DNA of 64,000 bases from Argiope bruennichi. Lineage: Eukaryota. The translations under genes and the position numbers were made by a program. Under the pieces are notes generated by a model. The model did no database searches, was not told the DNA's origin, and was given only the letters and a program-made list of their open reading frames with translations. Location of the stretch: positions 54,886,922-54,950,921 of the forward strand of contig NC_079163.1 in NCBI RefSeq assembly GCF_947563725.1, read 5' to 3'. This document shows, in pieces, positions 18,237 to 49,935 of the stretch; the stretch's first letter is position 1, and every line of letters starts with the position of its first letter.

Positions 18237-18277
18237 TTCTAATGCATTTTTTATGCATTTTTCTAATGTGTGTGTTT

Positions 18278-24611: not shown

Positions 24612-24616
<5 letters not shown>
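24089..24616 (+). repeat. Interspersed repeat family D, copy 2
   Basis: Homologous to 5587-6118. It is bounded by (TA)n tracts on both sides (24075-24090 and 24617-24644). ORF 24162-24437(-) lies inside it and is spurious. Confidence 0.8.
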
Positions 24617-24646
<30 letters not shown>

Positions 24647-26529: not shown

Positions 26530-29106
26530 CTGAAAGTAATTAAAAAAAAAACATATATGATCAAGGGAAGTTTGCGAGTGCCATCATTACAGGTTTATAT
26601 CAAAAAGCATGCCGCCTTTTATGTATTTATTTATTTTGAAATATGAGTCCTGATTTCAAGATGTATGATAAGTATGAATTTTGGAATCATTTGCTCCAAG
26701 CTAAAGTAGATAAAATCTAAACTCAGCGTGAAAAATAACTTAAGCCATGGGCAATGCTTTGTATCAGAGGGCTTTGTATATCGCTTTCTTTCATTATTCC
26801 TAATCTTTTAACAATTCGTAGATCAGAATTACAGCCAAATCAAGATCTCAAATAGGTATATTGACTTTAAAATTCTTTTGTTCAAATAGAATTCTCTTGT
26901 TCAAAATGTTTGTTATATTCAAAATTGAAATATTTTGATATTTTAAATAAAGATAAGACATTTTTTTCTAAAAAAAGATTCTTTTCAGTGTTGTAAAAGT
27001 AAATATATCCCAAGTATTTTCGAATCTTTTTCTTATTTGGATATATAAAAGTGAAATAATTTGGATCTAAAAAAGAGAAATAATTTGAATCTAAAAAAGG
27101 GAAATAAAAGCACAATTATTTTGTCTTCTTGTGTCTTTCCCCTAAGAAAAGAGTTCAGCATATTTATACCCTTCTAGCCCCTTTTATCTAATGTCACTTA
27201 ATCCCTTGCATCTTGCGTTTTTTTTTTCAAAGTTTTTATATTATATTCATATAAAAATGAAAGCACTTTGTAGTATTTATCCTTTCATTTTTAATTTCCT
27301 CATAACTAAGAAAGATGGAATTTGTTGAATGTTACTTTTTGATAATTTATGAACTTGTCAATGCAGATAGAAAGGTTTAAAGAAACATTTTTAATGCAGT
27401 GGCTTATAATTTTATTCACATTTTTGTTAGCAATATACTTTCTTGGAAATTAAAATAGGTTCTTCTTGTTTTTCATATTCATTGTTTTTATCAGTCATAC
27501 TTTTGTATATGAAATTTTTCACATCAATGCTTTATTCAGAAGTTATTTTCCCCTTGTTTCGTTGGGTTTTTTTTTGGGGGGGGGAGCATTTTTTTTCCTC
27601 AAACGGGGGATTCAGTATATTTCCTCTCAGTCTAAAAGCAATCAACCAACTAAATTTTCTTTCTTCTTCTGTTTCGAAATATATACATACAAATAATTTT
27701 TATTATTATACAAAATATGCGATATGAGTATCGTTTCCTGAGATTTTGTTCAAAGTTATAAAAACGTTTCAGCGGAATTTTGTAATAACGGTTTGCTCTA
27801 ATCTTCTATCAGATTAATAATATATCTATCGTGGTTTTGACTTCTTATATTCTGTCGAAGAGAAAATTAACTTAGTCGTATTTGTACATGCAGCTGGCAA
27901 TGAAAGAAACGAAAATAAAAAATAAAGTTACATAAAACTTGCAGGTTTTCACACTTTGTCAGTTTGTCACTTGACATTGTAAGGAAGGCCGGCGAAATAT
28001 ATGAAATACTAATTGTTTCACATTTCAACTAAAATTGCCTAAATATTATACGGAATGCCACATTTTGAATTTACTGATAACATATAATATGAAGCCTAAC
28101 CTTAAAATATTGATTGTTATTTTAATTTATATAATTCCAAAGGATTTTATTTACGATACTGAAGTTAAAATAATTTAATAACTTATTTATCATGTAAGCA
28201 TGACAGTTAATAACATCAAAACTCCTTATATCAGATTTTTGAAAGAAACTCATTTTAATTTACGGAAATAACTAAGAAAATAGCAAATGCGCTAAATTTG
28301 GAAAGTTCTATTAATATATTTTTATGATGGTCTTATTTTCAAGCACGAGCTTAAATCTAATGGAAATATGAGACCTTAAATATTTAAGCGATTTTTTTAG
28401 TAACTTATTGCATTGATTCTTATATTTATCTACTAATGCGCTCTAACCCCCCTCCCCCTTGCAACTTCTTTCAACTATTCCTTAAGTATTTTTTTAATTT
28501 TGCAAGCTTATTGTTATACTTATTGGTAAACAAGAAATCTTGTTTCAGAAATTTCTAGAAATATTTCTAAGAAGCGATAAATATTTCAAACAGAAGTGGA
28601 ATCTTTATCTTTTTTTTTTTTTTTTAATCTGTTGTATTTTCACTCTGAAAGCTTAGCAAATGCAAAATACTTAGCAAGATTTGTTTTAAAACAAGCATTT
28701 ACGAATAAATTAATCAAAACAGTTTTCGAGAGCGCACTTTTATGAATGGACTTAACAGCAGAATTTTTCTCCTTTCATTTACTTTTTACTTTGTAATTAA
28801 TAATTCATTATTATAAATATTATAGATTCTTGTAAACAATTTTTTTCAAATCCACTTCCAGATGGCGGCACTCATAAGGAATCAAAACTTAATTAGATTA
28901 ATAGATTAATGGATAACTAAATTCTGAAAATTTTAAAACAATGTATTAGTATCGAAAAGTGCAACACGTCAGGAAAAGAGAGAAAAACCATTTTAAAAAA
29001 TTCTATCTTTAGAAACATAAAACAAGTTAAATTGAATAAAAGTGTGTAAAAATACAATATGAAGAATTAAGAATAAAATGCATGATGAATAAAGAACAAA
29101 TCTTAC

Positions 29107-29481
29107 CGGTGGTCTTAAGTGGTTGCTTTTCATAGGGATGGGAAAGATGGGAAACACTGCTGGCAAGACATGGTTCACCTTTGGTACAGTAGGTACTACG
29201 TTACCGAATACAAAAGGTGCTTCATTTCTCACTTTTAAGTCTGGTTTCATCATGGGAGGAAACATATTGGGGAAACTGTTTTGAATAGGATCAGCAGGCG
29301 CTACAGGGATTATAACAACATTAGCGTCTTCCTCTTCACTGCCGCTGAGGGGATCATTCGAAGGCAAGGAGTAAGGAGTATTGCTAGGAGCAGGCGGAAA
29401 TCGTGGCTGTGGAGGTACATCCATGATAGAGGGACTAAGCAGTTCAGGAAGAGGAATAGCATCGATGGAATTCAGCATGTT
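29107..29481 (-). CDS. Internal coding exon (125 codons, phase 0 to 0) encoding a proline-rich segment
   Basis: Acceptor is tgtgtgccttttttgcttttttAG|AACATGCTGAATTCC. Donor is TTAAGACCACCG|GTAAGAtttg. The translation is NMLNSIDAIPLPELLSPSIMDVPPQPRFPPAPSNTPYSLPSNDPLSGSEEEDANVVIIPVAPADPIQNSFPNMFPPMMKPDLKVRNEAPFVFGNVVPTVPKVNHVLPAVFPIFPIPMKSNHLRPP. It is the longest open frame in the window, and GC-balanced codon usage is unlike the AT-rich background. Confidence 0.65.
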
Positions 29482-31221
29482 CTAAAAAAGCAAAAAAGGC
29501 ACACAAAAAAAGATTCATCATTATAAATGATGATAGTTGAAAATACAAAATTAATAGTTAGTACATTCGATACTTTTCAAATGTGATATAAATAAAAAAA
29601 TACTTCATTCATGAAAGTTAGTAAAATGTTCAAAATGCAAATAATAATAATAATAATAAATAAATAAAATAAAAATACTTTAAATCTAAATATTTCACGA
29701 ACTCATGGCGCATTCCGTATTTGAGTGTTTTCATAGTAATGATCGATTGTAATGGATTCAATCATTTGTAAGACTCAAACAGCTGGATAATAACAATAGT
29801 TTTATAACACGGTAAAATCTCTCAAACCCAACGCGCAATTAATTGGCAATATTAAAATAAAGGCAGTTTTAATGATATAATTTTAAATCTGAAATTGAGC
29901 CTTATGAGATAAAAAATGAAAGATATGTAATTGATTAGTGATTAGTACTTAATAGTAAAGAAGAAGGGTGGGATGTAAGCCATACTATTTCTGTCATTAT
30001 CTCCCTTTCCTTTGATACCGACAATTGATTTGAAATCGAACATGTGTTGATAACAAAATCGAACTAGTAACCGTATAAAGAGCTCATAAAGAGCATCTTA
30101 AAATTGAAATTATTCTTTAGTAATGAAGTAAAAGCATAAAAATATGATTTCCTGCTTAAAATGTCAAGAAAAACATTCCATATATATATATAGTAAAAGA
30201 GATAATTTTTTTTTTTTTTTTTTACATATATTTACCACAATTCAGTCTCAAAAAAAATATAGCTGATGTTTACTTAAATCCTTTCTTAAAAGCAATGGAA
30301 TTTCTCTTAATTTGTTAAGGTAAAAAGTTAATTGTGAAGGAATGCGCACATTAAGTATTAGCTTTTGTTTCCGATAACCATGTCAAGACAAATTTACGCA
30401 GTAACATTCACAGTCAAAGAAAACTTTTTTATTGAAAGCATTTTTTTTTTAATCTTTTGTTCGCTTCAGTAGCTCTGTTTTCAATAACAGCGCAATAATT
30501 TTATAAATTGACGGAAAAAGGAAGAAAAAAACTTGTTTACATATGTTTGAAATCTATTTTTTTCTTAGAACTGAAAACATTTTTACATTTCCTTAGAAAT
30601 ATTCAATGAATGCTAAATAAATGTTTATTTTCAGCATGGGAGAATATTAAATTGCTAAATGCTACTGTGGACTTTTATAATTATAATTTTAATACCTATA
30701 TTTTTTGCCTATTTCTATTGAATGTAAAAACCAGCTATCTGTAATCATCTGCTAAAAAGAATAAATATTGAAGAGAATTCTTGACTTAAGAGAATAACTT
30801 AAATATTTGAGAGAATTCTTGATATTTAAGAAATTTTTTTTTTCAAAATTAATAAAGTATGTTTTTGTATTTGTTATTTTATGGACGGGAATGCACAGAA
30901 TTCGGCTTTAGATATGCAAACGTTTTATTTCTTATTATTATTCAGTTCCACCATGTTCATTTTTGAGATCTAATGTCGATTCAATTAATCATCTGCTTAA
31001 AAAGTTTTTTTAATAATTGGAAAGTTTTTTTAAAATTCAAGTCAATACCTTCCTTAAGTTCGGCGAAGGGCAAGAAATTCGCCATATTGAGATTTTTTGC
31101 TGTTGTTACGAAAGTAGTCAGGGGAGATGTAAAGATATGCAGTTTCATGAATTACTGAAAAATTGATGTACTGAAGTTGTCCAGAATGCTACTCAAACGA
31201 GTAAGAAACAACGCCTGATGT

Positions 31222-31500
31222 TGGTTGGTTGGTTTGGTTATATTAACGTCCCGTTTTGAAGCAACACAAGGGCTATTTTGGGACGGACCTCGTAATTTTG
31301 AACCGCGGTCAGATGACGAGGACGACATCTGAGCTGGCACCCCCCTCTCCACACCACACCAGCGGGAGGAAGTTTGGTCATGACGGATTTAACGTGCAAC
31401 TGACCCCCTTACGCGACGGTTCTTCGGTGGAATCGGGTCTCGAACCTGAAACCCTCCGGTTCCGAAGCTGAGACCTTACCACCAGGCCACCGCGGCCCGT
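31222..31500 (-). mobile_element. Full-length SINE-A (tRNA-derived) insertion flanked by a 16-bp target-site duplication AAACAACGCCTGATGT (31206-31221 and 31501-31516)
   Basis: Minus-strand head: GGGCCGCGGTGGCCTGGTGGTAAGGTCTCAGCTTCGGAACCGGAGGGTTTCAGGTTCGAGACCCG. The A box is TGGCCTGGTGGT and the B box is GGTTCGAGACC. The tail ends in ...TAATATAACCAAACCAACCAACCA. Exact direct repeats abut both ends. ORFs 31152-31352(-) and 31256-31471(+) are internal and spurious. Confidence 0.85.
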
Positions 31501-32933
31501 AAACAACGCCTGATGTACGGCGGATTGGTTTACTGAATCAACACTTCCTCATTTGGGCAGGCGACATCTATAAAGGGGAACAAATAATCATGAAGCAGCT
31601 GATAATAGCATTTCCTGTTCAATTTGGCTAATTTAATCCGGGCAAAAGAAATGCTCTTCATATCATTATAGAACCATCAATTTTTGCGGTACCTTGTTGG
31701 GAAGTTTGGTCCGTAGTCTTCTGACCCTTTTTCATTTACCTAAGATCAAATGCCTATAATTAATTCCATCACAAGTTGAAATGCCACTTGTCAATGATAA
31801 GCAGTGGGTAAAAGCACTCGGTTTTCAGCTGCCTTATTTCTGCACCGATGCAGTCTTTTGCTGCCATACCTCATAAACTCCAAAGTTTTCTTTTTTGCTG
31901 CTGGTCGCCAGATTCTATTATATACGTCATTAAATTTGATAAGGTGGCGCAGTGTCATTCGCCTACTCACATGAATACGTTAGATAAGATATTTTAATAA
32001 TAATAATTTTAATTCTCTGACTGCTAATTTTTAAATTACTATTTAAGTAGTAGTAACAAACAAGTTCAAATATTTTTTTTTAATGAAACGAATTTTTATT
32101 ACATGTTACCCATTAATAATACGATATATTGTTAATATAGTTAAAATGGTTAAATACATTAATATTTAAGTTAAATGATAATAGTTAAAAATGTAATAGT
32201 AGAAAATATTAGCCTACGAAAATCGTAGGATGCAGTAGAAAACAGCCTGACTTCCAATCCTTGAAAATCTCGTGATAAGGATTTGGAAGGTTACAAATAT
32301 CGATTTCATTAAATAACTAAATAATTCTAATAAATAAAGAGTATTAGAACTTAGAATAAAAAGATAAAACTTTAAAATCAGCAATAGAATTTACATTTGA
32401 AATTTTGAAATTTTTATAGAATTAGAATTTTTTTTATTGTTTTAGATAAATTGATTATAAACTGTTATGAGAACTAAGAACCATAGAAAAATATTCACTA
32501 GCCATCACTGATCACAAATGGTAGTGACGTATTTAACTAATGAAAAATAATTCAAGTACAAAAATAACTTATTACAATTTTTAGATTTGATTTCGAATTA
32601 ATTAAATAAATTCTAATTATGGAGGATTTTTAAAGTTATGATAAAAAGAAAATTCAATAACTAAAGAAAAATTCGAATTGCAGAAGAATTCGAATTAGTT
32701 AAATTCCACGATTTATGAACTATTTTTAAGTTCATTAGGATCATATTGAGGATTATTTGACTGAGAGTGTTGTAGCTTTCATGGCAATGTCCACTTGAGT
32801 TGCTATTGACTGTAGTTATTTTCAGCTACGAGTAAAAAGAGAGAGAGAACGGAAATGGGGAAGAAAAACTATTCAAATGTAAAGAAGAGAAACCATATCC
32901 AATTAACTTTCACCGGAAGGAAAGAAGTCTTAC

Positions 32934-33305
32934 CTCTTCAATTTCCTCTCTGTTCTTCATCCTTTTATACAGCGTCTTCAAAATCGCAAATGGATTTGTT
33001 CCTTTTCTCAGTGCGACTGCTTCGATGAGGTCTTGTAGGTCATTCAAGCCCACGCTGTCGACAATTTCTTCCATGTCGCATCCGACGACCCGATTACTTT
33101 GCAGTGCCATCCTGTTCGCCGAGGTTTTCAGAGGATCCAGATTGTTTTCCATGTCCGACAGTTGCTTGATTGCATTGAACTGCGGATAGTTGGAGATGGA
33201 AGAGTGGACGACTCCCATCAGCAGAAGGAAAGCGACGGAAGGAGAGAACATCCTTGGGATGCTGGAAGAGGGACAGACTCAAAGAAAAGCTTCACTGGGG
33301 GGATT
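32934..33305 (-). CDS. First coding exon of the minus-strand gene: ATG at 33251-33249, CDS 33251-32934 (106 codons); the exon starts at a 3' splice site at 33305, which implies an upstream non-coding exon
   Basis: Minus strand reads tttttttttctctAG|AATCCCCCCAGTGAAGC...TTTGAGTCTGTCCCTCTTCCAGCATCCCAAGG ATG, with an in-frame TGA 30 nt upstream of the ATG. The translation is MFSPSVAFLLLMGVVHSSISNYPQFNAIKQLSDMENNLDPLKTSANRMALQSNRVVGCDMEEIVDSVGLNDLQDLIEAVALRKGTNPFAILKTLYKRMKNREEIEE. Donor is GAAATTGAAGAG|GTAAGActtc. The hydrophobic N-terminus VAFLLLMGVV looks like a signal peptide. Confidence 0.6.
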
Positions 33306-34429
33306 CTAGAGAAAAAAAAATATTTTATTAATAGAAGGCAGATATATAATTATTTTCGTTATCCTACATAACGCACTTTTTATTATGGATTTGATTTGCT
33401 ATGCAGCTATGCGTGGGCTGATTTCCAGACTTCCACGCCACACAGGAATGAAGGTATTTTCCTCATAACAAAAAATTTAAATCACTTCTCGGATTAAAAT
33501 ACAATATTGTTAGATTAACAGCAGCAGTAGCACTTGATTTCATTTGTATAGAAAATGGGTTAATTTAAGGTATCCAACTAGGTTTCAAAGATGCTTTTTC
33601 CAGTAAAGTTTGAAATATTTTTTATGATTTGAAAATAAAGTGCAAATTTTGTAGATTCAAAAGCAGACTTTGTTTTTAATATATGTAAGATAGAACTATT
33701 GGTACAGTAGTTTCAATAATACACAAGAAAGAAAAATGAAATCGGAAAAAGTGGTATTTTTAAACGAAAATGAGTGATTTAGTTCAGTTTTACCTTAAAA
33801 GATTTTTTTACCTTATCCAAAATAATATTTGATATGCTTATATTAACTCTCTACATACTCAGCCATAGTTTGCTTATTTTTGGCAATTCTATTAAAAAAG
33901 CATGAAAATACATTCGTTTCCAGCGCATCTGGATGAACTAATTTAAAAGTGCAATGTTTAAACGCATTTTCTGTACAATGAATATTTCACTGTGATTGAT
34001 TCACGGGAAAAAATGATATCTCAAAATCAATTTAATGAAATTTGGTATACATATATCCAAAACCTTTGAGGGTGTGATAAACCGCTTCATATAGACATAT
34101 TTTACAGACACTTTAAATTCAAAACACAGACAAATTTTGACAAAAAAATTATTAACGACAACTTCAAATGCTCATAAAATTTTATTTATTAAAATAATTT
34201 TTCCTAGCATTTCCTAGTATTTCCTAGCACTGAAAATGTTGCTAAATTTTCATTAAATAAACAATCTTTTCAGAAACTAAAGGCAATGAGCATATTTTTT
34301 TCTCCGAATAGTGACCTTTCAAGTCTGTTTTAGATATTTGATACAATAAAAAATGTTTATGTATCATTTTTTTAAGAATTCGTCTCCGAACCTAGTCGGA
34401 TAATTTTATGAAAATGCTTACGATAGATC

Positions 34430-34735
34430 ATAAGGGAAATATAACATAAGGGAAAATTTAAATGCTCCATATTCGCATTACTGCAGATCTGCACATAGTT
34501 TGAGTAATAAGGGAAATAGTAAGTGCAGCAAATATGCATCTTTACAATCCTGCACATATTTTGTCTAACCAGGAAAGGTTTGAGTGCTGCAACTATACAT
34601 CACTGCAGACTTGCACATCCTTTGACTTATTAGGGGAAATATGAATGCCTCAAATATGCATTGATGCAGACTTGTACATTTTTGGATTAATAAAGGACAA
34701 TATGAGTACTGTAAATATGCATCGCTACGTAGCAT
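34430..34735. repeat. Minisatellite, about five copies of a roughly 60-bp unit (aagggaaata..aagtgc[a/t]gcaaatatgcat..ctgcagatctgcacat..tttg...)
   Basis: Direct reading of successive units. Each unit contains the motifs atgcatc, ctgcaga[tc]ctgcacat and taa[gt]gg[ag]aaat. Confidence 0.85.
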
Positions 34736-35384
34736 AGGATTAAACATGATTTGTTAATAAAGATATAATATCACTTCTGAGAATGAAACATTGGCTGCAG
34801 GAGGAAAATTGGAAAATAGGAGTTTAACAATGACTACCCGAATATATTTAAAGCTTACAATTTGAGCTCAGCTATATCAGGAATGTTATGTAAAATATTT
34901 ATGATTATGAGCAGAGAATTATCCTTCTTTGTAAGCATGTTTGAAATAGATGAAAAGCTGGGAAATGAACGATGAATCTAATGTTACTTAAATATTCTAG
35001 TTATATCTATTCAATAATATCACAGGAACATAATTAATTCCTTTTATAAAAAATTTTCAGGCATTCATCAACTTCAGGTATTCCTCTCAGCTCATGATAT
35101 ATTTGCCAACATTCTCAGAATGATGACGGCATAAAAGGAAATATTAATAAAAAAAAAACAGTGACTTTTAGTATGGAGAACTAGTCACCCACTCCTACAT
35201 TTATATCAAGAAGTCAGATTCCTTGGGAGAATACATGAATTCTTGGAGAATCTTTGATATGATTCCGAACCCATTTGCTGAAAATATCTACCTTGTTGAT
35301 CTGTTGTTGCCGTTTGCCGTTGCTCCGCATTTTTGGTAAATATCTTTCTCATATATTTTCAGAATGGTATGTCTCTGTTTGTAC

Positions 35385-35396
35385 GGGGGGGGGGGG
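35385..35396. repeat. G12 homopolymer
   Basis: gtttgtacggggggggggggtgataatagg read directly. Confidence 0.9.
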
Positions 35397-37002
35397 TGAT
35401 AATAGGCATCTTTTCTCATATCGAGAGTTAAGATTCCTTTCAAGATGGTAGGTAAATAAGCAATAAATAGAATCAATACATTTAGTGAAAACGTGAATAG
35501 ATTCTGTGGGCCTCATTTTATTTGATAACAGCCTTGTATTATTTGTTTAGAAAAAAAATTAAAAAATTTGTTCTGCAAAAATTTTTTTAACTTGTATAGA
35601 TTTCAAGAGTAAGCAAAATAAATAGATAAATAATTTTTTTTAATGAAAAGCTTTTTTTTTGTAGTTTTTTTAAGTAAGTCTACCCCTTCCCCCTCCAAAG
35701 GCATGTGCACTTAATTTTCGTTTTGACTTCGTTAGCATTGCATGTTTTATTGATTAAAATTAATTGATTTGCAATTTTTTTGTCACTTTAAAGAAAAACT
35801 GGCATCTCAAAGAATCACAGATTTATGCTTTATTTTTCTGATGCTATTGCAATGATTGTAGCCTCAAATCAAATGTAAATGAAAGAATTACTTTAAAAGT
35901 TTAATTACAAATGAAACATTGACATAAATATTTGCATCAAGATGTTAATTAGAATTTATATAAAAAAGAAAACCACGAAGTATATGATTAAAATAATACT
36001 ATATCCTATTAAGAGTTTTTCGATTGAATAAAACTGAAATTAATTGAGTAAATAATATTTATAGGAAATTATTATGCAGCAGCTTTTGACAACACAGATT
36101 TCAGCAGATTTTTGAAGGATTCATGGGTAAAAAAATGTTTCAATTTAAGTGCAAATTTCCTGATGATAAAGTATATAAAAAGGTGATTAGCTAGTTTTAT
36201 CATTTTATTTCATTACTTTGTCTCATCTCTAGAATACTCTTTTTCTTTACAATAAAATATGTTGCAAAAGTTATTTTTTCTTTAATAATGAATTCCTTTC
36301 ATAAAAATTCATCTTTTCATTTCATATACAAATATAATTTCTGTCTTCTAGATTTGCGACTTGAATTTTAATAATAATAATAAAGAAACATTTTCCTGCT
36401 ATTTAATTTATACACTCAGCAACTATTTATGGAATGCTTTCTTTTTTTATATAAACTGACTACCTAAAATATTTTGAGGTGGGCGGTAACATTATTATTA
36501 TTTTTTTTTTTTTTTTGCACGAGTATTTAGGTATGTGGTTATAGAAAAATAACCTCTTTAAATAAGGGATGAAATTAAATCTCATTATTATTATTATTAT
36601 TTTGTAAAAAAGAAAGCTTTCTCCCGACGTTACATTGTTTTTAACCTCATTTTGTTAGTCCTCTATTTTTAATTGTTAGAAATTAAAGATAAACGATTTT
36701 TATTTTCAACGGTTAGAATTTCTTATCTATAAATTATAATGTAAAAACAATAATTTCTAATTAAAACAGTGAAAAATCACCTTTTAATGTATTATGAGCA
36801 AATTATACTGCAAAACATAAATTGAAAAAAAACATCGTTCCTCTTTATTTTTATGTGATCTTCTTATCAATTGACTATTAAGCTTCCCAGAGAATTCTGT
36901 ATGTAACTCTAATTATTATAAAATCTGTAATATTTGTTATTTCAAGGACTTATCCTTTATATATTCAGCTAGATACTTGTGGAGCAGCTCGGTTTCATCA
37001 AA

Positions 37003-37140
37003 GTATTGTTTTGAAGGGATTTGAGGGATATTTTGTGACCGATCTCTTAATTTTGAACCGTGATAAAATGATGAGCACGATATCTGAGCAGGTACTCACT
37101 CTCAATTAACACATCAGTTGGGGGACAAGAGGTCAACCAG
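37003..37140 (-). mobile_element. SINE-A family fragment (body only)
   Basis: gttttgaagggatttgagggatattttgtgaccgatctcttaattttgaaccgtgataaaatgatgagcacgatatctgagcagg aligns with the + strand of the 31222-31500 copy (cccgttttgaagcaacacaagggctattttgggacggacctcgtaattttgaaccgcggtcagatgacgaggacgacatctgagctgg). Confidence 0.55.
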
Positions 37141-37876
37141 TAGAACGAGAATAGCGTATAACATTCTTTGTTCAATAAATATATGAACTAAGACATTAAG
37201 ATTGGCTTGAGATACGTGTGACCCTGACCTTGTCTGCTTTGAAAAAACTCTCGGAAAATTCATAAAGAGTTTAATGGTGTCCATGGCTATTGCATATTGA
37301 AGAAAATAGTTCCGTTCAAATGCATCAAGTATTTCAGTGAAGTTCGTGATGATTACAAAAATGATGGAGGAAACCTGCTTTGTAATTTGATGAAAAGAGT
37401 CGCAGCAGTTGAATATTCAGACTTTTGAGAATTTCCAGGAATATGTTGAACAGTGGAAATAGAGAGTGGGTAAAAGGAGCATTTTATAAGAAGAAAAATT
37501 AGTTTATTTAAATTTTGTGAACTTACATTCTTACTACACAGTTTGCGTATTTATTAAACAAAATACGTAATTAACCATTTTCTTTGTTCTGGCACGGCAT
37601 ATAAAGAAGAGGGACTAATGAACGGTCTTTATTTTTTCTAACAGATAGATCGTACCTCTTAAGATGAAAGATTACTGTTTGGAGTGCGTCGTGATTGGGC
37701 TTGTTTCACACGAAGTACAATCCCTCTCAGTGGCCTACCATTAAAATTTTGAGTGTTATGGTATGTTGCGAGGTCTCAGATTTCGTTTTTTAGTTATTTC
37801 TCTTCTACATAAATATTTATCTTCAATAATTTTCTTATTGGTTCTAACTTCTTATTAATTTTGATGTATGTCCCAT

Positions 37877-38126
37877 GGGGGACACCTCGTAATCAAGGAT
37901 GAAAAGCTTCCGGTATGGTGGTTGATTCTCGCCACTCCTGTAGTTACACGAAAAGGTGGGGGTCTTGCTCCTCCCATCGATAACGGGACATATTTCCTTA
38001 GGGAAGGGTTGTACCGTGGCTGGTGATGGCCCTTAGGACTCAACCACAGTTCCCGCCGGTGTTGCAGTTGCGGCGGTCCGGTCATTCAATTTTTCCGTGT
38101 GCCTTCCGGCGTGTTGGAGTAGTCAG
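37877..38126 (+). mobile_element. Family C SINE-like element, copy 4
   Basis: Reads gggggacacctcgtaatcaaggatgaaaagcttccggtatggtggttgattctcgccactcc...ggttgtaccgtggctggtgatggcccttaggactcaacc...tttttccgtgtgccttccggcgtg. ORF 37855-38085(-) is internal and spurious. Confidence 0.7.
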
Positions 38127-38301
38127 TTTGTGATTAATTTTGATATATTTATCAACGATGATTCGTGTTTATGATATATGAAAAAGACAAAAGACTTTGA
38201 CAGAAAACTTATGCATTATTATATATTTTATGAAATTAAGAGTTATATATTTATGTGCTTTTTGAGAAATGTAACTTGTGCCGTATCCGTATTGTCAGAC
38301 A

Positions 38302-38614
38302 ATACAGCACACTATTTGTTGTCCAAAATGTTTGTAGCAAATCTTTAAAAAATCTCTTTTTGTCTGATACGTATTACAATGACCATTGGAATTTATTTTC
38401 TGAAGACAAATTTAGAAATTTTAAATGAATTATAGCGATAAATTATTAATTAAAAACTACAGCACACTATTTGTTGTTCCAAATGTTTGTAGCAAATCTT
38501 TAAAAAATCTCTTTTTGTCTGATGCGTATTACGATGACCGTTGAAATTTACTTTCTGAAGAAAAATTTAGAAATTTTAAATGAATTATAGAGATAAATTA
38601 TAAATTAAAAACTA
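38302..38614. repeat. Two-copy tandem duplication with a period of about 157 bp
   Basis: acagcacactatttgttgtccaaaatgtttgtagcaaatctttaaaaaatctctttttgtctgatacgtattacaatgaccattggaatttattttctgaagacaaatttagaaattttaaatgaattatagcgataaattattaattaaaaacta is repeated with about 8 substitutions. Confidence 0.9.
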
Positions 38615-40841
38615 TGAAGTGGAAAATAATTAAAATTAAAAAAAATTATAGTAAATTAATGCAATTGTATTGTTATAAATGTGATTATATCTGAAACTTA
38701 TACCACTTATAGTGAAAGAAGCCAGTGTATAGAATTTATTCTGAAATTATTTATTCGGTTCAAAACGGTAAAAAGTAAGATCTTTAAGTAAAATACCGAC
38801 CTTAACATTTGTTTTGTTGTAATAATTCAACCGTAAAAATTAAATGAATAAAAATATAATCTTAAGTTTTATTAAAAATTCAAAATGACTATTAAGGACT
38901 AATTCAAATCCTATGAAAAAATAAATGCTTGAGTAACTCGTACGAATTCCGTATGCAATTACTGAAGCAAAATCAACAAAATAATTCTCCTGACTTCATT
39001 TTAGATTTATTTGTATATGTTTTTTATAATAATAGAATCCATAAGTGTCTAGAGATGCTAATTGAAATGAAGCTATTTAAAAACGCTTTCGAATTAAAAC
39101 AAGTAATAAAGAATTTCTCCTCCCCCCCCCTACTATTCAGGTTTTTATTGTTCTGGAAGATCAGATTTTTTTAAATACTTTTTTTTTTCAAAGCGGAGCA
39201 TTTCCGGTTCTCTATTTAAAGTGTCGACTGAATCCTAAAGAGTTTTATATTGGCCACTTTTCAACTTTTTAATTATCATTGCAATTTTTTTCAAACATTC
39301 TTCAACGCATTTTGTAAAAAAGGGCAAAGAATGAAACATTTTTTGTTATTGAAAAAGGAAGGTTTTATGAATTAAACAGTAACAGCAAAGTATTTGATAT
39401 CTCAGAGCAACAGATTAAAAAGTGATTACAGTCACATAATTTAATAACATTTTTTGTCATCGAATAATTTCTTATTGCTGCTTTTTTCATAATTAGATTA
39501 CTTTCTTGATAAGATTTCTTTATCATAATCGATTGAATAAAATTAGAAAAAAAAATAATCAGTAATCAGCCTTTTTATCTTTCTAAATGTCAAATAATGT
39601 TAAAAAGGGGTTAATAGCAAGGATAAAAAAAAATTTCTCACTCACATTTCTAAGAAAAGACGTTAGCTTTAAATTTAATTAATTAGGTTGGTGACATAAA
39701 AAAATATAATGTAAAATAAAATTTCCTGAAGTATAAAACGGTATATCATTTGCTTAAGCCAATAACTGTTTAGTCGCGAAATAATTATTCTAGAAACATT
39801 TTGACTGCTTATGTCCGAAGGGCAGAAAAAAATGTAAATTCTTTTAACACGTTCAAAGCCCACTGTATCTTAAGTGCATGATTTATATCAGATCTAACAC
39901 TTTTTAAACCAGAAAGGCACAAAAAAAATCACTTTTATAATAACTGTTAATTCACTGATAGTATCAACAAAACTGATTTTACCAAATATCTATGTATATG
40001 CCAGCTAGAATAACTTTGATTTAATTGATGATATAGCATTGTGACTTTCATCTTATGTTTAATTTTGTTGTACATCATCAAAGAGCAAAGTAGAATTTTC
40101 AGTAAATTACTCTTTTTAAGCACTTTTATTTAACTTCATAAGTTTCATGTGGCTAAAAACAGCATCTTGTTGTTGCTTTTTCACTTATTTTTTGAAACAC
40201 AATAGTTTAGAAAATTCGCACAGTTATTTATTTTCTAGGACAATATTCTATTTGAATATTTTCAAGAACAAATAGATAGAATAATTTAATTAAATTAAAT
40301 ACCATTTGTTAGTGAATTCGAGAAAGAATGGATTTCAAGTGTCGATAATACTCATAATAAAGAATTATAAATTTAAGACTGAAAAGTAAATAACTAAAAT
40401 AATTAAAATAAAATTCCATTTTTTAATACACTAATAAAACTATGTTCTTAAATATAGTTTATACTATATAAATTATTATATATATCCTCTTGAGTAAAAG
40501 AGATATAATATTCTTAGATTTATAGACTACATAAAAGGTGGTTAATTTGTACATTTACTGCATCTAAACGCAATGCAGTAAGGTTATTATGACTGGTACT
40601 AAATGCTGACTAATTTCTACTAAATACTGATATTAAATAAATTGAGATCTAATTTCTAAAAAAAAAATGAAACTCAACTGGATTAAAACGTGAACAATAT
40701 ATACTGTGATCAAAATTTAAGATTCAGATCAGATTTAACATCTTGGATACACAGATTTAACATCTAAGATTCAATCAGATTCCTGTCATATTTGGAATTA
40801 AATACACAAAAAGGTTGACCTTCTATGGGTTTACACTTCAA

Positions 40842-40985
40842 TAAGCACGTAAACAGAATAATTCAAAATTGCAATGACTTAAATATATGAAATTTGGAAT
40901 GTGATTTTGTGACTGGAATTATAGTTCTATGTCAGATTTTGGTTTCATCCTATCAGATCAAAAAACATCCAAAATAGACATTCCA
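40842..40985 (+). repeat. Family E repeat, partial copy (sub-unit 2 only)
   Basis: aagcacgtaaacagaataattcaaaattgcaatgacttaaatatatgaaatttggaatgtgattttgtgactggaattatagttctatgtcagattttggtttcatcctatcagatcaaaaaacatccaaaatagacattcc aligns to 17075-17230 and 53395-53540. Confidence 0.65.
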
Positions 40986-43900
40986 TTTTCTGGAACGGTT
41001 AATGCCAGTAAACAACAGTGATTAATCACAAAATATTTGCCAACGATTGCTCTTACATAGACTTTTTCATATCTACCGTTCGTCAACGGTATGCAGTTAA
41101 TAATACACAAGTGCATGTATCAGAAAGTATGCGAAAAAGTTTCGAGAAGAGCTCTCGTGCTGGTTTAATATGTTGTTTCATTAGGACTCTATTTTTTGCA
41201 TTCACTTTGCTTTGGATTGCTTGCTAGGCATACTTTGTTTTTATGGCATTTATGAAAGAATGTAATAGCATATTTGATTTCAGAATATCGTGAAATGATA
41301 GCTACAAAAAACACATAGTAGTTGGGGAGTAAACAAATAAGTCTCCTGGGTCTCAATAAGGTATGTTATTGATTTTCTTCGTATAAGAGCGTGGATTTAT
41401 TTCTGGAAACATATAGCAATATATCGAATGGATCGAATTAAATTATCCCTTGTCAGAAGAATGTAAGTAATAAAACTATTTTCTCTGATCATTATTTCCT
41501 AATTTGTAGTTCATGTTCATCTTCTTCTTTTGATTAATATGAGAGAAATATGAGGAATCAAATTCATCAGAAATATGAGAAATTTAACTAAAGCTCCTTG
41601 GGATAATAAAGCTACAAATATTTCGAATTAAATGTTTGAGTTAATTTGGAAAAATAGAGAATGTGTATCGGAGACACCTACGAATTCAAGCGAAATGCGG
41701 TATAAAATGTTGTTGGGTCAGGTGTTCTAAGAACGCTGTCAGATTTGTTTATGTCAAATATGCAAGAAGAAACTCATCCTAACGAGGGAGTAAATATAGC
41801 CCACTCAAAATTCATTTCATTCCGACGTTAAGTATTCGAGCATAGCATTTTGATCCATGTGACATGATACCTGCAAGCCTACAGCAAAAAAAACACATGG
41901 CTGGCTGTATATTTCGCTAACATATCTTTAATGGTGAAGAACACTTTGATGATTAGTATATTTATTTTTATGATTAACTCTTGACACACTGCCTTATCAA
42001 GATTGCAAATCATGAACACTGAAATTACAACATGATGATGGCTTTTATTGACTATTTGGAGAGCTAGAGCTAGAGCTATTTGATATAAATTTGTACTAAA
42101 TAGAAAAAGATTTGATGTTTCTGCTACAAAATTTGGAAGAAACCACAACGCAACTGACAGAAGATGAAAAAAATTACTGTAAAACGATATGACATTGATT
42201 GAGTTTTATATAAACGGATTTAAGATTACAACCAGCTTTTAATGGGGTTATTTATAATGCACTTTGAATAAAAGAGAATATTTGAAGAATTAAAATAAAA
42301 TTACAGAGATAAATTAAGATATTATCATCAAATTTTGCAAATTTCAAGATAAATCGCGATTAAAATTTGGCGTTAATATTTCAGAATAAAATAATTAAAA
42401 AAATACAGAATAATATTTTTCAGCTGCTTTTTTCTGTACATATGTTTTTATATTGAATTTAGCTCTGAAAAGTTCCGTTATATCTTTTAAGAGAACATAT
42501 AGAAATCTAATAATTTATTCCCAATAAAGGAGTTTTCATTTTAATAATAACATGACTTTTGAAGCTACCGAAGTGTATTATTGCTAATAACATATTTGCT
42601 TCATATCATATTCATTTTCATTTTTATTTGACTCCCTAGCGCTTTAAAGCAATTATATATTATAATGAATCGCAATTCAATTCATGTTAGAGCGGAATGT
42701 TTCAAATAAAAATAATCTGATGTATTCGCAACCGAAATGAATCTATGCATCCCCTATTATATATTGAATGATTTTAATGTATTTTCTTCTGAATAATATC
42801 AAAAGAATAAAAGGCAATATTCAAAGAGAGAGCTCACGAAATTGCATGCATCATTTTTGTGCAATAAAAAACAATATTGTTGCCGGGAAAGAACTGTGAA
42901 TTGTGAGAAAAATTATAGAAATAATGAAAGCGGAACTAAAAATTTTTAACACTGCAAGCACGCTAACAGGAAATAATGATATTAAAATAAATTTATGAAA
43001 TTAATATAAAATTCTTTTCGACTGAATTGCGAATCATGAAAATTTCTGTTCTACTGAAATAATTTCGAAATTTTATTCCGACTTCCCTCTTTGATGAATT
43101 CATACATTTTGATTTCATAAACGAAATAGTTAATCGATAAGATTTCAAATTAAAATTGTATGGAAAGCTAAAAGAAACAGCATTACTAATAAAAAAACAT
43201 TGACAGTATTTTTATGCACCTTACGACTGCGTGTAATAGACTATAAAATTAAACCATTTTCGTTTTAAGAATTGCGTTTTATGACTTACAATATCAATAA
43301 TTTATGATAAATCTAATTTTAATTAAGATTTATCAGCAGGTTTTAAGTACATTGGAATCATATTCTGGACTATTTAATAAGTCGAAAAGATATACCATGT
43401 TATGTTCACTATACTGGATATTTGAATTTCTTCTCATCATGGTATTTAAATTTGTTTTTCCAAGTCTATGTTCACAAATTTGTTTTTCCAAGTCTATGTT
43501 CACAAATTTGTTATTAATAGACAGAGAAGATTTTAATGAAGTAAAATCGCTCCAGTTATAAAAGTGCTATTAAAAACATTGCAGGAATTTTTTAAAAAAT
43601 TTACACTGATTTTGAATTAGGTTTCAGTCTTATATATTTAATTGATGCTAATTTTTTGATCGCAAATAAATCAATTAATCAATTTCTGTTAAGATGCCTC
43701 ATTGAAATTTCAAGAACTTTTTAAAAAGGTGCAAAACAAATGTATGAAGTAGTAAAAATAACTCTTTCTCCGAAATTTCATCATTTTTTTTTTTTGCACG
43801 CTTTTATTTAACATGACTTGTTTCGTTTTTGTAAGATGGTCTTTTGTAATCGAATTTTCCTTAATTTCCTTATGAATTAGAATCTTGAAATTTTGCAGAC

Positions 43901-46900
43901 ATGTATTCTTTATGAGCCTATGCAACTTCATTATTACAGAAGTTAATTATCGTTTAATTGATTAATTGAGTTAAATTTTCCTTTTTTTAGTTATATATTT
44001 GAGGAAAAAAATATTTTATGATTTTTTAATATTCATTATAATGAATTATAAATTAAAATCGAACATAATTAAAACAAAATATTCTGTTTTTGATTTTTTT
44101 TTAAAAACTATTCTGTGAAATTGATTTTAAAATACTATGGCACTGAATCCTTTAAAGTGCAGGCAGACGCGTAATTAAAGAATTTTCATACCGATGAATA
44201 GTGAATTTTAAAACAGCAATTTTAATGCAGTAATTAGAATTAAATTAGTGCTAATAACATTTTACGTGATAAAAAATATTGAAGAAGCGTTTAATAACCT
44301 GGCATTTAAAGATATGCAATAAAAGAATAACAATACCCAGAATATGTTTAAAAATTGAATAAAGTAAGAGGATACAGGCCAATGAAATATTCAGAAAGTT
44401 AAAGAGATTGTAAATAACCGTAGATCTTTGATACTCTAAATTTAACAGAATAAATATTGAAAAGGAAACGTGTCATGCTTGATCAAATGATTACACAAAG
44501 TATTAATACTGGGAAAAGCTTTCTTGAATGCCTAGGACAAGATTTTTAATGAAAATCATGAGTGAATAATGATCAATCTCATTTATTAATCATTAATGAG
44601 TTTTGCTTGAAATTAATACAACATCATGATGTTGCAACCAATATTAACATCCGTTTGATTAATTATCAACTAATGTTGAAATAGGGTTGTTAGGTGTTAA
44701 AATAATCTTTGAAAGCTTTCAGTTATTCAAGTAATTCATTCATTAACCATTATTCAATATTACAATTAATATAACAGCGATAGTTATTTAGTAATAGCTA
44801 TTCAATACAACAACTCATCATGCTTGCAAATGAGTTGTCTTTCGGTTTTTAAGTTTTCGAGCTCCTTCAGAAAAGAATTTTTATTATATGAATCAGTAAG
44901 CCTTGAGTGCCTATACAGGATAGTGTTGGCCCTGTGACAGAACCTCAACTTTTGGACAGAAGTGTAGAGATTCGATTCCACAAAAGTTTGTCCAATAAAT
45001 GGATTAATGCTCATTAAATTTGAGTTCCCTTCTAATATGTTGTAGATTCAAAGAGAGGGTTATTGACTCTAGAATAATTTTTTGTCATCTGCAACACTTC
45101 GAGGTGCTTGCGGAAAAAACTCGCGTTTAGCTTCAAAATAGAAAAGTTAATCTAATAAACTTATATTAAGAAATTTGATTAATGTGATTATCTGCGTTGT
45201 TATGGTTACTTTATTTATTGGATTTCAGAGTTAAAGTTTGTTTTTTGTTTTTAATTTTGCCACCTCTTCCTCAAGAATTTTTAATAACTGCTATTATAAC
45301 GCTGGTTAAAAGCAGCCAAGGATCGCACTTTTTTCTCTTACTTTCATTCTTCAATAAAGCATTTCATTCAAAAATTGACGTAAAAATTTCATTTCAAGTT
45401 TGTGTTCAAAATGGATTCATTATTAATGAATTACAAAACTATTATTACAAAATTAAATGAATTACAAATTTCTTTCAAAATACATGCAAAAAATTAATAT
45501 GAAAAAATATCCAATTTTGAAATCAAATGATACAGGTGAGAAATTTTTCTTACAATATAATTTCTTCATAGCCAATTTGGGAATGAAAACATTTAGTTCA
45601 TAATAGAGATACCGATATGTGAACATAATATTGTATTATTTTATCGTATTGCTTTATTTTTTACAGATTTTACTCTGAAAAAATTATTTATATAATAATG
45701 GAAATATAGCTAAAAATCTTAGCAATGAAAGAAAAACAAAGGATAATAAAATATTTATTATTTTGAATAAGGGAAAAAATTACTTAACACTTAGAAAATC
45801 TTAATTTTGCAACTTATCTGTAAAACCTATGATAATCAAGTTTTTGTTAAGCTGAGAAAAGTTAAATAAACATATAAACTATAAATAATTCTACAAAAAC
45901 ATTTTCTTTTATTATTTATTGCTCCTTCTATTTAAAAAAATTGGACTTAAATCTGATAAAAAGAATTGTAATAACTATGCATTAAAGTTTTCTTAATTAT
46001 TGATATAAATGTTTTCGCACCTTTCAGAAAGGGGATCCGAGCGACATTTTCAGATGAAAATGCAGTGAAGAAAAGTTTTGCGAAAGATTCATATTAATTT
46101 TAGCATTTTTGTTGAAACGCAGAGATATTCAACTTTATTTTCAATAAAAATTAAATTTATTCCTAAATATAATATATTTTCAAAATTTCATCAATAAATA
46201 ATCATTAACATTTCAGTTAAACCATTTTCCAATTCTTCCACCAGAAATTTTCTGATCATTTTTATTTTCTTATCAAACGAACTGATTTTACACAAACATG
46301 CAGATCATGAATTTTTCTGGTAATCGTATTTACAATAACAAAGAAATAATTTTTTTAAATTATTCCAGAAAAAAATCTCAACATTTAAATTGAAAGATCC
46401 TAATGTGTTTTTTATTGAAACATATTTAGATTACTTCAAAATCTCTCAAAACTAAACATCCTAAATTTTCTTTTCTAAAACATATAGACTTTGTCAAAGT
46501 TCGAAGAATAATGTTTGTGGAAATCATCACAAACAGTTTGTGCGATTCTGTTTAAATCATTGTTAATAAATTCGCACTTGTAATTCTTAAGTAATTGCGC
46601 AGAGAGTTCTAACAGATTCTATTTAAAATTACAGAAAAAATTTTAAATCTTAAAATTTACAAGTTTTCTTATCGACAATATGCGATTATTTAACTAATTA
46701 TCTTAAAATATTATTGAAAACATTTGCGATAATCTTGATTTGAGTTAATAATGATATTAGCTCTTAAACACAAGAAATGCCTTATTAAAACTTCATCCCC
46801 AAAAAAATTTCACAATTTTAAACTAGAATTTCTAAGAATTATTTTACTGGTAACTTTTTAATCATTGCAGAGTCTTCAAAAACTAAATATTACACATTTT

Positions 46901-47980
46901 TCTTTTTAAAATAATTAGAGAAATTGCTATTGTTATATATTACTTTAATTAAAGTAAGTAAAATCTTTGAACTAAATCTTGACTAACTAACTTATTTTAA
47001 ATCTTATCTTAACTCATATTCCTTCACTCCGAGCATTCTGGTCATTCCAATCAGTTTAGTAATTAAAAAACTAATTAAATAAATTTATAAATGAAAAAAA
47101 CTCCAAGAATTTTGAAAATATACAATGCCTTTTGTGTTGAGAGATCAATACATTTAAAATAAATCTTCATGAAATAGATATTCGAATACCATCAATGCGA
47201 ATTTCCCGAACACTTTACTGACTTTTCGAAAATTAAATAACGAGCGGTGTTGTTTTCGAAAAGATTTAGAAAATCCTAGATATTAAAGAATAGGATATAT
47301 CCATACAAGCGGCATTCTATTTATGATAAATATTATAAATAACTGTGAATACATTTGCCTATTTCTATTGAGAATTCTAAAAGGTTTTTATATCATTCAG
47401 TAAAAGATCTCGATTTCATTATTTTCACTAAAAAAATCTAATTAATTTCCGAATTATAGTTTTTTTTCTTTTTCAGTGTGAAGGACAGCAGAAGGCGCAT
47501 CATAAATATCCAAATACAATTTTACTTAAAATAAATTTAAGAAGCTTGTAATTGCCCACACCAAAAAGTTCTGAAATCTTCCGCAGATCTTTCAAATGTA
47601 TTGAATAAAAATTTCAAACTTTTTTTTCGAACATTTCTATATTTAAACAGTACAACAATTGAATCTAAAACTAGATGCTACTTATATTCGAAAGTCAAAT
47701 ATCATAAAATTTTCTTCTTAACATGCTCGCGGAAGTGAGTGCTATAATATTCATTTTCACTGAAATACACGATGCAATAAATACTGTGGCATTCAAATTT
47801 ATGATATAAAAATGGATTAATTTTTTTCTTACTATTTTAAAATACCATGCATTCAATTCCATATGATCATTTTTTTAATTATTAGACAAATTAAATCACT
47901 AATTCAACAATACTCTAAATATCTTCATTTTTTTCTAATCTTTTCTTTCGTTGTCCGTGAACATATTAAAAAAACTTATA

Positions 47981-48345
47981 TGATCAGTATTTTGAAAAAT
48001 AATACTTTTATAAATCGAAATAACGTTACATAAAAGCATCTTCATGACAAAATTTTTCAGAGAACTTTTAAATCGCTTTTAATTATTATCAAAAATTATA
48101 TATCATGAAACTTTTTTCAAAAAATTTGGCCGCAACAGAACTTTTAAAGAATCAGATTAGTATCTTTTTAAAAAATAATGTTTGTATAAATCGAAATAAC
48201 GTTGCATTAAAAACATCTTCATGACAAAAATTTTGGAATATTTACACGAAAACTTTCAAATTGCTTTTATTTATTATCTAAAATTAAATATCATGAAACT
48301 TATTTTCAAACAATTGGGTTGAAATTTTAAAGAATCATATCCGTA
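47981..48345. repeat. Two-copy tandem duplication with a period of about 182 bp
   Basis: aataatacttttataaatcgaaataacgttacataaaagcatcttcatgacaaaatttttcagagaacttttaaatcgcttttaattattatcaaaaattatatatcatgaaactttttt recurs as aataatgtttgtataaatcgaaataacgttgcattaaaaacatcttcatgacaaaaattttggaatatttacacgaaaactttcaaattgcttttatttattatctaaaattaaatatcatgaaacttatttt. Confidence 0.85.
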
Positions 48346-48659
48346 CAAATGAATATCATTCATTTAAAAGTAAATATCATTTAACTTCTTCTTTACTTCT
48401 TTATCTACTTTTTAAAAGTTCTCTTTATCTACTTCTTAAAAAGATATACAACAAATTTTCAATAATTATCCGATTCAGAATTCTAGATTTTACAGTTATG
48501 CGATATTCGAATTCTCTCAAAACTTTCTAATTATTTCTCAAACTCCGAAAAACTAAATTTTTGGCATATATTTTTCCAAAAAAAGATAAAATGCCTTAAT
48601 ATCTTTAAAGAATTCCACATATCATTCTATTGAAAGTAAATCTAATAAGTTTGCAGAAG

Positions 48660-49330
48660 CCCTTACCGAAATATGCTGCAACTTTCAACAGGTGACAAGG
48701 ATCAGAGAGCTTAGGCAAAGGCGACTCGTTGCTTCTGAGTCGAAAACCAGAGTAAGCGATTTTTCGGGGTGTTCTCTATATATCTGAGCTTCTTGTTGCG
48801 GGGGAGTGGCGCCTGCTCTGTGAATTCCTTCTTCTATATTTTCATTCACTCACTCCTGCTTGCGTCACTCCTACAATTTATCGGAAGAATATTCGAAATA
48901 TGTGTACGCGAGAAAAAGTAGTTTACAAATCTCTGGAATTCCGGTAGTGAGAAACCCCGTAACTTATCGATATTTATTTCGCACAAAATGCGGGAAGAGT
49001 TGAGAGTTGGCACTTGAAAAGCCTTTACTTCGGCCCGTTGCAAACACTTTTGCGGCCCTCACGAGTGTGATTCATCTGGAATATGGCTCATCTACTACAA
49101 GCGCATGTTTGAAACCTGTTGCTGACGTGCCAAGTTTCTTCATCTCACTCCTTTTTCAAGATTCAGTCTATAAATCGACTTATTTTTAAGCGAAAACTCA
49201 TGTTTGCTAGTTAAATGAAGGACAGAAGCAAAGCGTCGTGTCGGTTAGCATCAGTTGAATACCGCTGATATCTGTTTAGGCAGCAAAAATTTTTTTTGTC
49301 TTTGTTCGGTAGCAAATCGTGTACAGTTCA
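48660..49330. promoter_or_regulatory. GC-richer, CpG-containing, repeat-free island with a TATA element (+ 48775-48784 tctatatatc; minus-strand TATATAG); candidate promoter and 5' UTR region
   Basis: Local composition is markedly less AT-rich than the flanks, with CpG-containing strings (gcgcctgc, gtacgcgag, cggcccg, gcggccc, cgtcgtgtcgg). There is no long ORF on either strand and no similarity to the repeat families defined here. Confidence 0.35.
48667..48750 (-). other. Candidate non-coding first exon of the minus-strand gene; the 5' end is approximate, the 3' end is a GTAAGG donor
   Basis: Minus strand reads ATATATAGAGAACACCCCGAAAAATCGCTTACTCTGG...GTTGCAGCATATTTCG|GTAAGGgcttctgc. The TATA element lies about 90-110 nt upstream of the donor. 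The first coding exon at 33305 opens with an acceptor, so a 5' exon is required somewhere upstream. Linking the two is inference. Confidence 0.25.

Positions 49331-49933: not shown

Positions 49934-49935
<2 letters not shown>

Follow-up and report, generated by a model that had tools for sequence, protein, structure and literature searches.

Does the GC-richer island at positions 48660-49330 of the 64,000-nt stretch of Argiope bruennichi DNA analyzed here (hereafter, the window) act as the promoter and first exon of the minus-strand gene whose first coding exon opens at 33305, as was proposed from its letters alone? The two elements on which this proposal was built are indeed present on the minus strand, with TATATAG at 48782 to 48776, GTAAGG at 48666 to 48661, and a distance of 116 nt between the start of the TATA element and the G of the donor. 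Here, comparison with the corresponding loci of other spiders suggests that the island very probably provides this gene, LOC129960452, with its RNA polymerase II promoter and a noncoding first exon.

Composition and chance background of the island

Compositional analysis of 48660-49330 revealed a GC content of 0.423, a level attained by just 0.9% of 670-bp windows, compared with 0.290 across the window. The island contains 32 CpG dinucleotides with an observed/expected ratio of 1.07, compared with 0.93 for the window, and this ratio is reached by 28% of windows. CpG is not specifically enriched in the island, which simply contains more G + C; the elevated GC content and the presence of CpG that had been claimed for it are real, but the claim does not extend to CpG enrichment. 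The "CpG island" argument fails because this genome region is not CpG-depleted. Under criteria of the Gardiner-Garden type, a CpG island has a G + C content above 50% and a CpG observed/expected ratio well above a depleted background. Vertebrate promoters of this class share with the island a locally raised G + C content and more CpG than the flanks, but they differ in that the island's GC content is only 42%, its CpG ratio is in effect no higher than background, and a TATA box is present. Membership of this class was therefore rejected on both GC and CpG.

The island is single-copy, as neither the window nor 10 spider loci, the orthologs apart, contain it a second time, which agrees with its earlier description as repeat-free. 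It had also been singled out as the only stretch of its kind. The other GC-rich 670-bp windows are SINE-like or dispersed repeats from one family (31201, 17151, and 51251) or a second (37451, 19651, and 15151), coding exon 2 (32801), and an exact 171-bp tandem duplication (1451). The distinction essentially holds; 31201-31870 is GC-richer than the island. Across the AT-rich window, 578 TATAWAD and 83 GTAAG sites were counted on both strands together, and in 19% of 670-bp windows a TATA element has a GTAAG 60-200 nt downstream of it on its own strand. Because such pairs are this frequent, the TATA/donor pair alone is weak evidence and does not exceed chance. What lies beyond chance in the island is only its composition and its cross-species conservation.

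LOC129960452 and its predicted 5′UTR intron

The open reading frame at 32910..33251 on the minus strand matches araneid spider proteins. Joining four minus-strand coding exons at canonical splice sites gave a 352-aa product that starts at the ATG at 33251, and this spliced model (33251..23759, minus strand) is 100% identical to "uncharacterized protein LOC129960452 [Argiope bruennichi]". Exon 2 (32934..33305, minus strand) comprises 5′UTR from 33305 to 33252 and, from the ATG at 33251 to 32934, the first 106 codons. It is followed on the same strand by exon 3 (29481 to 29107; 125 codons, part of the identical spliced product), exon 4 (26529 to 26257; 91 codons, with 78% identity to positions 14253-14562 of the Caerostris darwini locus L001), and the coding part of exon 5 (23851 to 23759; 30 codons and the stop). 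Past the latter, a conserved 3′UTR reaches at least ~23511, and window positions 23511-23862 are 71.5% identical to Caerostris L001 19719-20069. Eight further spiders were found to carry an ortholog, namely Larinioides, Caerostris, Trichonephila clavata, Nephila pilipes, Oedothorax, Uloborus, Stegodyphus, and Parasteatoda, and the protein is of uncharacterized function and so far spider-only. A Pfam search with the 352-aa product returned no family at E ≤ 1, and its hydrophobic N-terminus, which resembles a signal peptide, suggests that it may be secreted. A 111-aa Larinioides model (P0001) was looked up and is not on record. The Logan contig L002 was considered as a transcript and rejected as genomic; its sequence continues past the exon-2 donor, with only 205 bp 5′ of the ATG.

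A polypyrimidine tract and AG are located ~37-65 nt 5′ of the ATG in nine of nine spider orthologs, and this conserved acceptor therefore requires an upstream noncoding exon, as the original prediction had argued for the first coding exon. In Argiope, the acceptor reads ttttttttctctag/AATCC (slashes mark splice boundaries), and the exon opens at 33305, 54 nt before the ATG. The start of exon 2, AATCCCCCCAGTGAAGCTTTTC, aligns with AATACTTGGAGTGAAGCTTTCC immediately 3′ of the Caerostris acceptor. At the other end, the candidate 5′ splice donor TCG/GTAAGG (48661..48666, minus strand) aligns with CAA/GTAAGT in Caerostris. Starting at 48666, it is the best donor 3′ of the TATA box, with six of nine consensus positions compared with at most four for the other GT sites, and it matches the other donors of the gene in type (G/GTAAGA, G/GTAAGA, and G/GTTAGT). 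The corresponding donors are AAG/GTACTT in Oedothorax and ATG/GTATGT in Parasteatoda, and in all four species the donor lies 3-19 nt past the element CACCTGTTG. The resulting intron 1, a 5′UTR intron at 33306..48666 on the minus strand, would be repeat-rich and 15,361 nt long, in line with the acceptor at 33305 and the ~15.4-kb first intron proposed originally. Within 33306-48666, no block is conserved with the upstream regions of Caerostris, Oedothorax, or Parasteatoda, and collinear residual matches were found only with the closer relative Larinioides.

An annotated 68-aa "gene" extends over positions 4844-9955 of the Caerostris locus, just 5′ of the ortholog. We listed the GT-AG exon combinations with a 68-aa product and looked up each by exact sequence; a single combination (4844-4964, 5455-5526, and 9942-9955) corresponds to a deposited protein, CDAR_118641 (GIY87678.1). 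The last intron of this model runs from the donor at L001 5526 (5526/GTAAGT) to the acceptor at L001 9942; the junction of CDAR_118641 is thus the ortholog of 48667^33305. The coding sequence given to this model, which starts in a tandem repeat, is plainly spurious. The Caerostris genome was annotated by BRAKER 2.1.4 with HISAT2-mapped abdomen cDNA-seq (PMC8692038). Because this annotation took in mapped cDNA-seq, the Caerostris junction is probably read-backed; BRAKER is also able to place introns ab initio, so that read support is likely rather than proven. Mini-models of T. clavata (79 aa) and N. pilipes (68 aa) share the same end point in the exon-2 5′UTR and start >10 kb upstream.

Conserved elements of the probable promoter and the predicted first exon

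When the whole window was compared with the Caerostris locus by BLASTN, a collinear series of inverted matches emerged, comprising the 3′UTR and last exon (23511-23862), exon 4 (26245-26560), exon 3 (29108-29379), exon 2 (32921-33189), and the island, where 48721-49034 matches L001 5465-5124 with 70% identity over 356 bp (E 1e-45). The Caerostris island lies 4.4 kb 5′ of the acceptor. Pairwise alignment and sliding identity with Caerostris delimited a conserved block at ~48667-49036, with a weaker tail to ~49100. Its local identity of 70-88% is at least as high as that of the coding exons (65-78%), and it includes twelve identical runs of 8-23 nt each; identity drops immediately past the donor. 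Indels of 4, 1, 18, 8, 9, 1, and 9 nt separate the two species, and because of them, no reading frame is intact in the island. The extent originally given to the island is thus borne out for the conserved core, which has a GC content of 0.435, and weakly up to ~49100; the remainder at 49037..49330 (GC 0.405, no strand assigned) is GC-richer yet not conserved, and we give it no function.

A profile built from Argiope and Caerostris only was searched with nhmmer against both strands of ~290 kb of other fetched spider loci. It matched Parasteatoda L008 1831-2054 (plus strand, E 3e-8, ~8 kb 5′ of the ATG) and Oedothorax L009 5065-5121 (plus strand, E 2.6e-6, ~4.9 kb 5′ of the ATG). Both matches are on the gene strand, one per species, and no other score was below E 1. 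Conservation in relatives, which the original prediction had named as a check, is thus collinear and gene-oriented in Caerostris, Parasteatoda, and Oedothorax. The other loci were probed with collinear distinct blocks as well as with nhmmer, the raw count of shared 8-mers being swamped by AT-rich words. The multi-species alignment was made with E-INS-i; a default three-way MAFFT alignment misplaced Oedothorax after the first block. In Uloborus and Stegodyphus, the search to 10 kb from the ATG found no island, and a three-block match in Uloborus (L007 7097) was discarded as a repeat-like false positive. The fetched loci of Larinioides, T. clavata, N. pilipes, and an older Argiope assembly have a 10-kb flank and stop short of the island.

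In gene orientation, Argiope, Caerostris, Oedothorax, and Parasteatoda share one order of elements: (A)ATATC(G/A)ATAA; a block of ACCGGAAT and TTTGT(A/C)AACTAC; TGACGCA; GGCGCC followed by CTCCCCCGCA; the TATA box; CACCTGTTG; and, 3-19 nt on, the GT donor. In Argiope, the part of this series that precedes the predicted start site would form the conserved proximal promoter (48754..49036, minus strand, ~-1 to -284 from the predicted start), and conservation is strongest at 48860-48985 (75-88%), 5′ of the TATA box. The ATAAATATCGATAA block (48964..48977, minus strand, ~-224 to -211) is identical in Caerostris and contains the DRE-like palindrome TATCGATA (48972-48965, minus strand, ~-215), which is exact in Caerostris and Oedothorax and replaced by TATCAATA in Parasteatoda. 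It is followed by the ETS-like ACCGGAAT and the forkhead-like TTTGTAAACTAC (48918..48945, minus strand, ~-192 to -165); within this block, the 20-nt run TTTGTAAACTACTTTTTCTC is identical between Argiope and Caerostris, and the Oedothorax version reads CTACCGGAAT.CC.GAG.TTTGT.AACTACTT. Closer to the gene are the bZIP/CRE-like half-site GTGACGCA (48861..48868, minus strand, ~-115 to -108), of which TGACGCA is invariant in all four species, and the GGCGCC palindrome with the C-rich box CTCCCCCGCA (48797..48813, minus strand, ~-60 to -44). GGCGCC is likewise present in all four, while CTCCCCCGCA is invariant in three and reads TTCCCCCGCA in Caerostris. We take the conserved motifs of the island to resemble ETS, forkhead, bZIP, and E-box sites and liken TATCGATA to the Drosophila DRE. 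Several of them (TATCGATA, TTCGAA, and GGCGCC) are palindromes and thus fit dimeric DNA-binding proteins rather than an RNA-level role.

The TATA box (TATATAG, 48782 to 48776, minus strand) is located at ~-29 to -23 from the predicted start site, and a TATA-like element occupies the aligned place in four of four species (ATATATAT in Caerostris, GATAAATA in Oedothorax, and AATAAATATAG in Parasteatoda). A second TATA-like element, AAAATATAGAAGAA, at 48842-48829 is kept in Caerostris and absent from Oedothorax, where the proximal TATA box is kept. In Parasteatoda, TCAGTT, which we take to be the canonical arthropod initiator, follows ~29 nt after the TATA box. In Argiope and Caerostris, CTTACTCTG at the same distance fits the loose consensus YYANWYY, a degenerate motif of the sort that often matches by chance, and the Argiope initiator match is weak, the candidates being TTACTC or TCTGGT as compared with TCAGTT in Parasteatoda. 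The predicted transcription start site was placed near the A at 48753 (± ~6 nt) because TTACTC has its A 29 nt past the first T of the TATA box, the 23-nt run ACCCCGAAAAATCGCTTACTCTG spanning this site is identical in Caerostris, and Parasteatoda carries TCAGTT. In Argiope and Caerostris, DPE/MTE-like matches seen by eye between +18 and +32 were dropped, as the segment is deleted in Oedothorax and Parasteatoda.

The predicted noncoding exon 1 accordingly spans 48667..48753 on the minus strand (~87 nt). The E-box-like CACCTGTTG is located within it at 48694 to 48686 (~+60) and is invariant in four of four species, though the remaining sequence and the length of exon 1 (~44-94 nt) vary among them. 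Together with the 54 nt of exon 2, the predicted 5′UTR would comprise 87 + 54 = 141 nt. The predicted 5′UTRs of Argiope (141 nt), Caerostris (153 nt), and Oedothorax (112 nt) contain no ATG, compared with 1.6-2.4 per 5′UTR, or ~5.7 over the three species, expected from composition. In Parasteatoda, an ATG occurs at the extreme 3′ end of exon 1.

These observations are consistent with the following route from the island to the protein. Sequence-specific factors would presumably bind the fixed series of conserved motifs TATCGATA, ACCGGAAT, TTTGTAAACTAC, GTGACGCA, GGCGCC, and CTCCCCCGCA within the ~280 bp at 48754-49036, and the conserved TATA box at 48782-48776 would set initiation ~30 nt on, near the A at 48753. 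The ~87-nt noncoding exon 1 would end at TCG/GTAAGG, whose ortholog is used as a donor in the Caerostris annotation and which probably acts likewise in Argiope. Removal of the 15,361-nt intron would then join 48667 to 33305, giving a 141-nt 5′UTR free of upstream ATGs that leads to the ATG at 33251. For Argiope, we infer both the start site and the 48667^33305 junction; the proposed promoter and the splicing of its first exon to 33305 are backed by the conserved TATA box and donor and by the orthologous junction of CDAR_118641. A broader reading, in which a motif order fixed across the araneoid families Araneidae, Linyphiidae, and Theridiidae, with an E-box-like element in the 5′UTR exon, drives a gene for a spider-specific secreted protein, is put forward only tentatively. 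These three families span ~100 million years or more.

Alternative readings and related promoter types

Could the conserved block be a distal enhancer or a minor alternative promoter, with the main start site of LOC129960452 further upstream or within the 15-kb interval? The conservation peak 5′ of the TATA box at 48860-48985 would suit an enhancer, and the second TATA-like element, being conserved with Caerostris, might mark another start. The distal element is missing in Oedothorax, however, where the proximal TATA box is retained; the 33306-48666 interval is otherwise devoid of conservation with Caerostris, Oedothorax, and Parasteatoda, and the 5 kb located 5′ of the Caerostris island matches nothing in the window. 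We consider this reading unlikely because the adjoining 3′ donor is conserved and used in the Caerostris annotation and no other conserved candidate exon was found. The original prediction had itself allowed that the island might drive a plus-strand transcript. A divergent lncRNA or an unannotated gene, transcribed alone or additionally, could start from the near-palindromic TATATAT, which is readable as a TATA box on either strand, and the conserved block would then fall downstream of the plus-strand TATA box; moreover, divergent transcription is common at promoters. This alternative, which we regard as quite improbable, went unsupported: the module points the same way with respect to the gene in four species, and there is no conserved plus-strand donor or ORF, no conserved block past 49100, no minus-strand gene called in the 5 kb upstream in Caerostris, and no RNA family or folding signal on the plus strand. 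Unstable divergent transcription may nevertheless occur at the island.

A sharply bounded conserved block of ~300 bp, with identity equal to that of coding exons, might also be expected of a small noncoding RNA gene or a short conserved coding exon. The indels that distinguish Argiope from Caerostris break all frames of such an exon. As for an RNA gene, Rfam gave no gathering-threshold match in the whole window and best E values of only 3-6 for 48000-50000 searched at E ≤ 10, ARAGORN found no tRNA, and the conserved block folds no better than shuffled sequence on either strand (z of +0.14 and -0.49). All that the large deletions in Oedothorax and Parasteatoda have left is a set of short motifs, several of which are palindromes; this pattern suits protein-binding DNA, and either gene type appears very improbable. 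Finally, the frequency of TATA/GTAAG pairs across the window and the lack of CpG enrichment would both be compatible with a chance fluctuation of composition without function. This explanation is in effect refuted by the cross-species matches (E 1e-45, 3e-8, and 2.6e-6), which are syntenic and in the same orientation, and we assign it a negligible probability.

As the probable promoter and first exon of LOC129960452, the island most closely resembles the TATA + initiator ("focused") type of RNA polymerase II core promoter, found at animal genes that are regulated and often tissue-specific. It shares with this type a TATA element at one place in four species and dense conserved short motifs over 250 bp upstream; a candidate initiator-like sequence lies ~30 nt past the TATA element (TCAGTT in Parasteatoda). 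It differs in that its start site is a prediction, with a weak initiator match in Argiope, and in that the invariant E-box-like CACCTGTTG is located in the transcribed exon and not upstream. The exact 8-nt palindrome TATCGATA of Argiope, Caerostris, and Oedothorax, a putative site, recalls the DRE/DREF motif of Drosophila; there, the DRE is typical of TATA-less housekeeping promoters, whereas here it stands alongside a TATA box, and Parasteatoda carries TATCAATA instead. In its predicted arrangement, the 5′ end also follows a layout that is common among arthropod and vertebrate genes, in which the first exon is noncoding and the 5′UTR contains a long intron. Exon 1 is short and untranslated, the GT-AG intron ends 54 nt before the ATG, the UTR has no upstream ATG, and the intron position is kept in nine spiders, with nothing unusual among these features. 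The length of this intron ranges from ~4.4 kb in Caerostris, 4.7 kb in Oedothorax, and 7.9 kb in Parasteatoda to 15.4 kb in Argiope, and exceeds 10 kb in Larinioides, Trichonephila, and Nephila.

Taken together, a probable 5′ end completes the model of this real, though uncharacterized, gene, and the reading made from the sequence only is supported. The island is otherwise ordinary eukaryotic gene anatomy of a thoroughly known kind. The comparison also exposes a recurring annotation artefact, in which 5′UTR exons are deposited as separate "hypothetical proteins" of 68-79 aa in Caerostris, Trichonephila clavata, and Nephila pilipes; the Caerostris ortholog is additionally split by a frameshift. 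For spider biology, the locus offers a compact candidate promoter with a clear, testable set of conserved motifs. If gland-specific expression holds true, this ~400-bp promoter would be among the first comparatively defined spider promoters and a possible tool for spider transgenesis.

Conserved segments of the predicted transcript and matches in intron 1

Within the predicted noncoding exon 1 of the minus-strand gene LOC129960452, a 9-mer, CACCTGTTG, is invariant in four species, lying at window 48686-48694 (-) in Argiope bruennichi and at approximately 5499, 5238 and 2081 in the Caerostris darwini (L001), Oedothorax (L009) and Parasteatoda (L008) loci, respectively. The donor follows the 9-mer by 3-19 nt, while the remainder of the exon is divergent on both sides. 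At the other end of the gene, conservation with Caerostris extends to the 3'UTR (window 23511-23758, minus strand), and the block at 23511-23862 displayed 71.5% identity, about the same level as that of the coding exons.

When intron 1 was compared with the upstream region in Larinioides, collinear matches emerged at 39363-39562, 40071-40138, 38770-38857 and 34736-34789, the best of which reached 78.6% over 201 bp. No counterpart of these blocks was found in Caerostris. The matching blocks could represent residual similarity or else a younger intronic conserved element.

Repeats and other GC-rich patches

Apart from the GC-richer island read as promoter and exon 1, most GC-rich patches were explained by two dispersed repeat families, one at window 31226-31432, 17536-17751, 37008-37095 and 51590-51683, and the other at 37895-38128, 20072-20300 and 15311-15427. 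The former also occurs in the Larinioides, Trichonephila clavata and Nephila pilipes loci. Directly upstream of the island lies a 57-bp tandem repeat (2.9 copies, 49451-49616), and a perfect (TA)42 microsatellite (49935-50019) is likewise close upstream.

Deposited models of the ortholog

In Caerostris, the deposited annotation splits the ortholog (L001 4844-19819) into three gene models. CDAR_118641 covers the 5'UTR exons with a 68-aa ORF that is spurious, CDAR_118651 represents the N-terminal part and terminates at a frameshift in exon 3 where the ORFs 12923-13060 and 12933-13328 overlap, and a third model of 143 aa occupies 13200-19819. Mini-models were also found in T. clavata and N. pilipes (79 and 68 aa, respectively; L005 and L006 1-9955), each stopping within the exon-2 5'UTR. 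The N. pilipes ortholog P0008 carries the UniRef label 'Spider venom protein'; in this analysis, neither a domain nor a function could be assigned to the ortholog family.

Kazal-domain neighbour

Convergent to LOC129960452, a Kazal-domain ORF is located at window 944-1249 (+), adjoined by a GC-richer stretch that contains an exact (100%) 171-bp tandem duplication (1490-1660 and 1659-1829; window 1490-1829). An NtA/Kazal (agrin-like) gene occupies the same relative position in Oedothorax (L009 22303-25915, minus strand), and synteny is therefore conserved between the Argiope window and Oedothorax.
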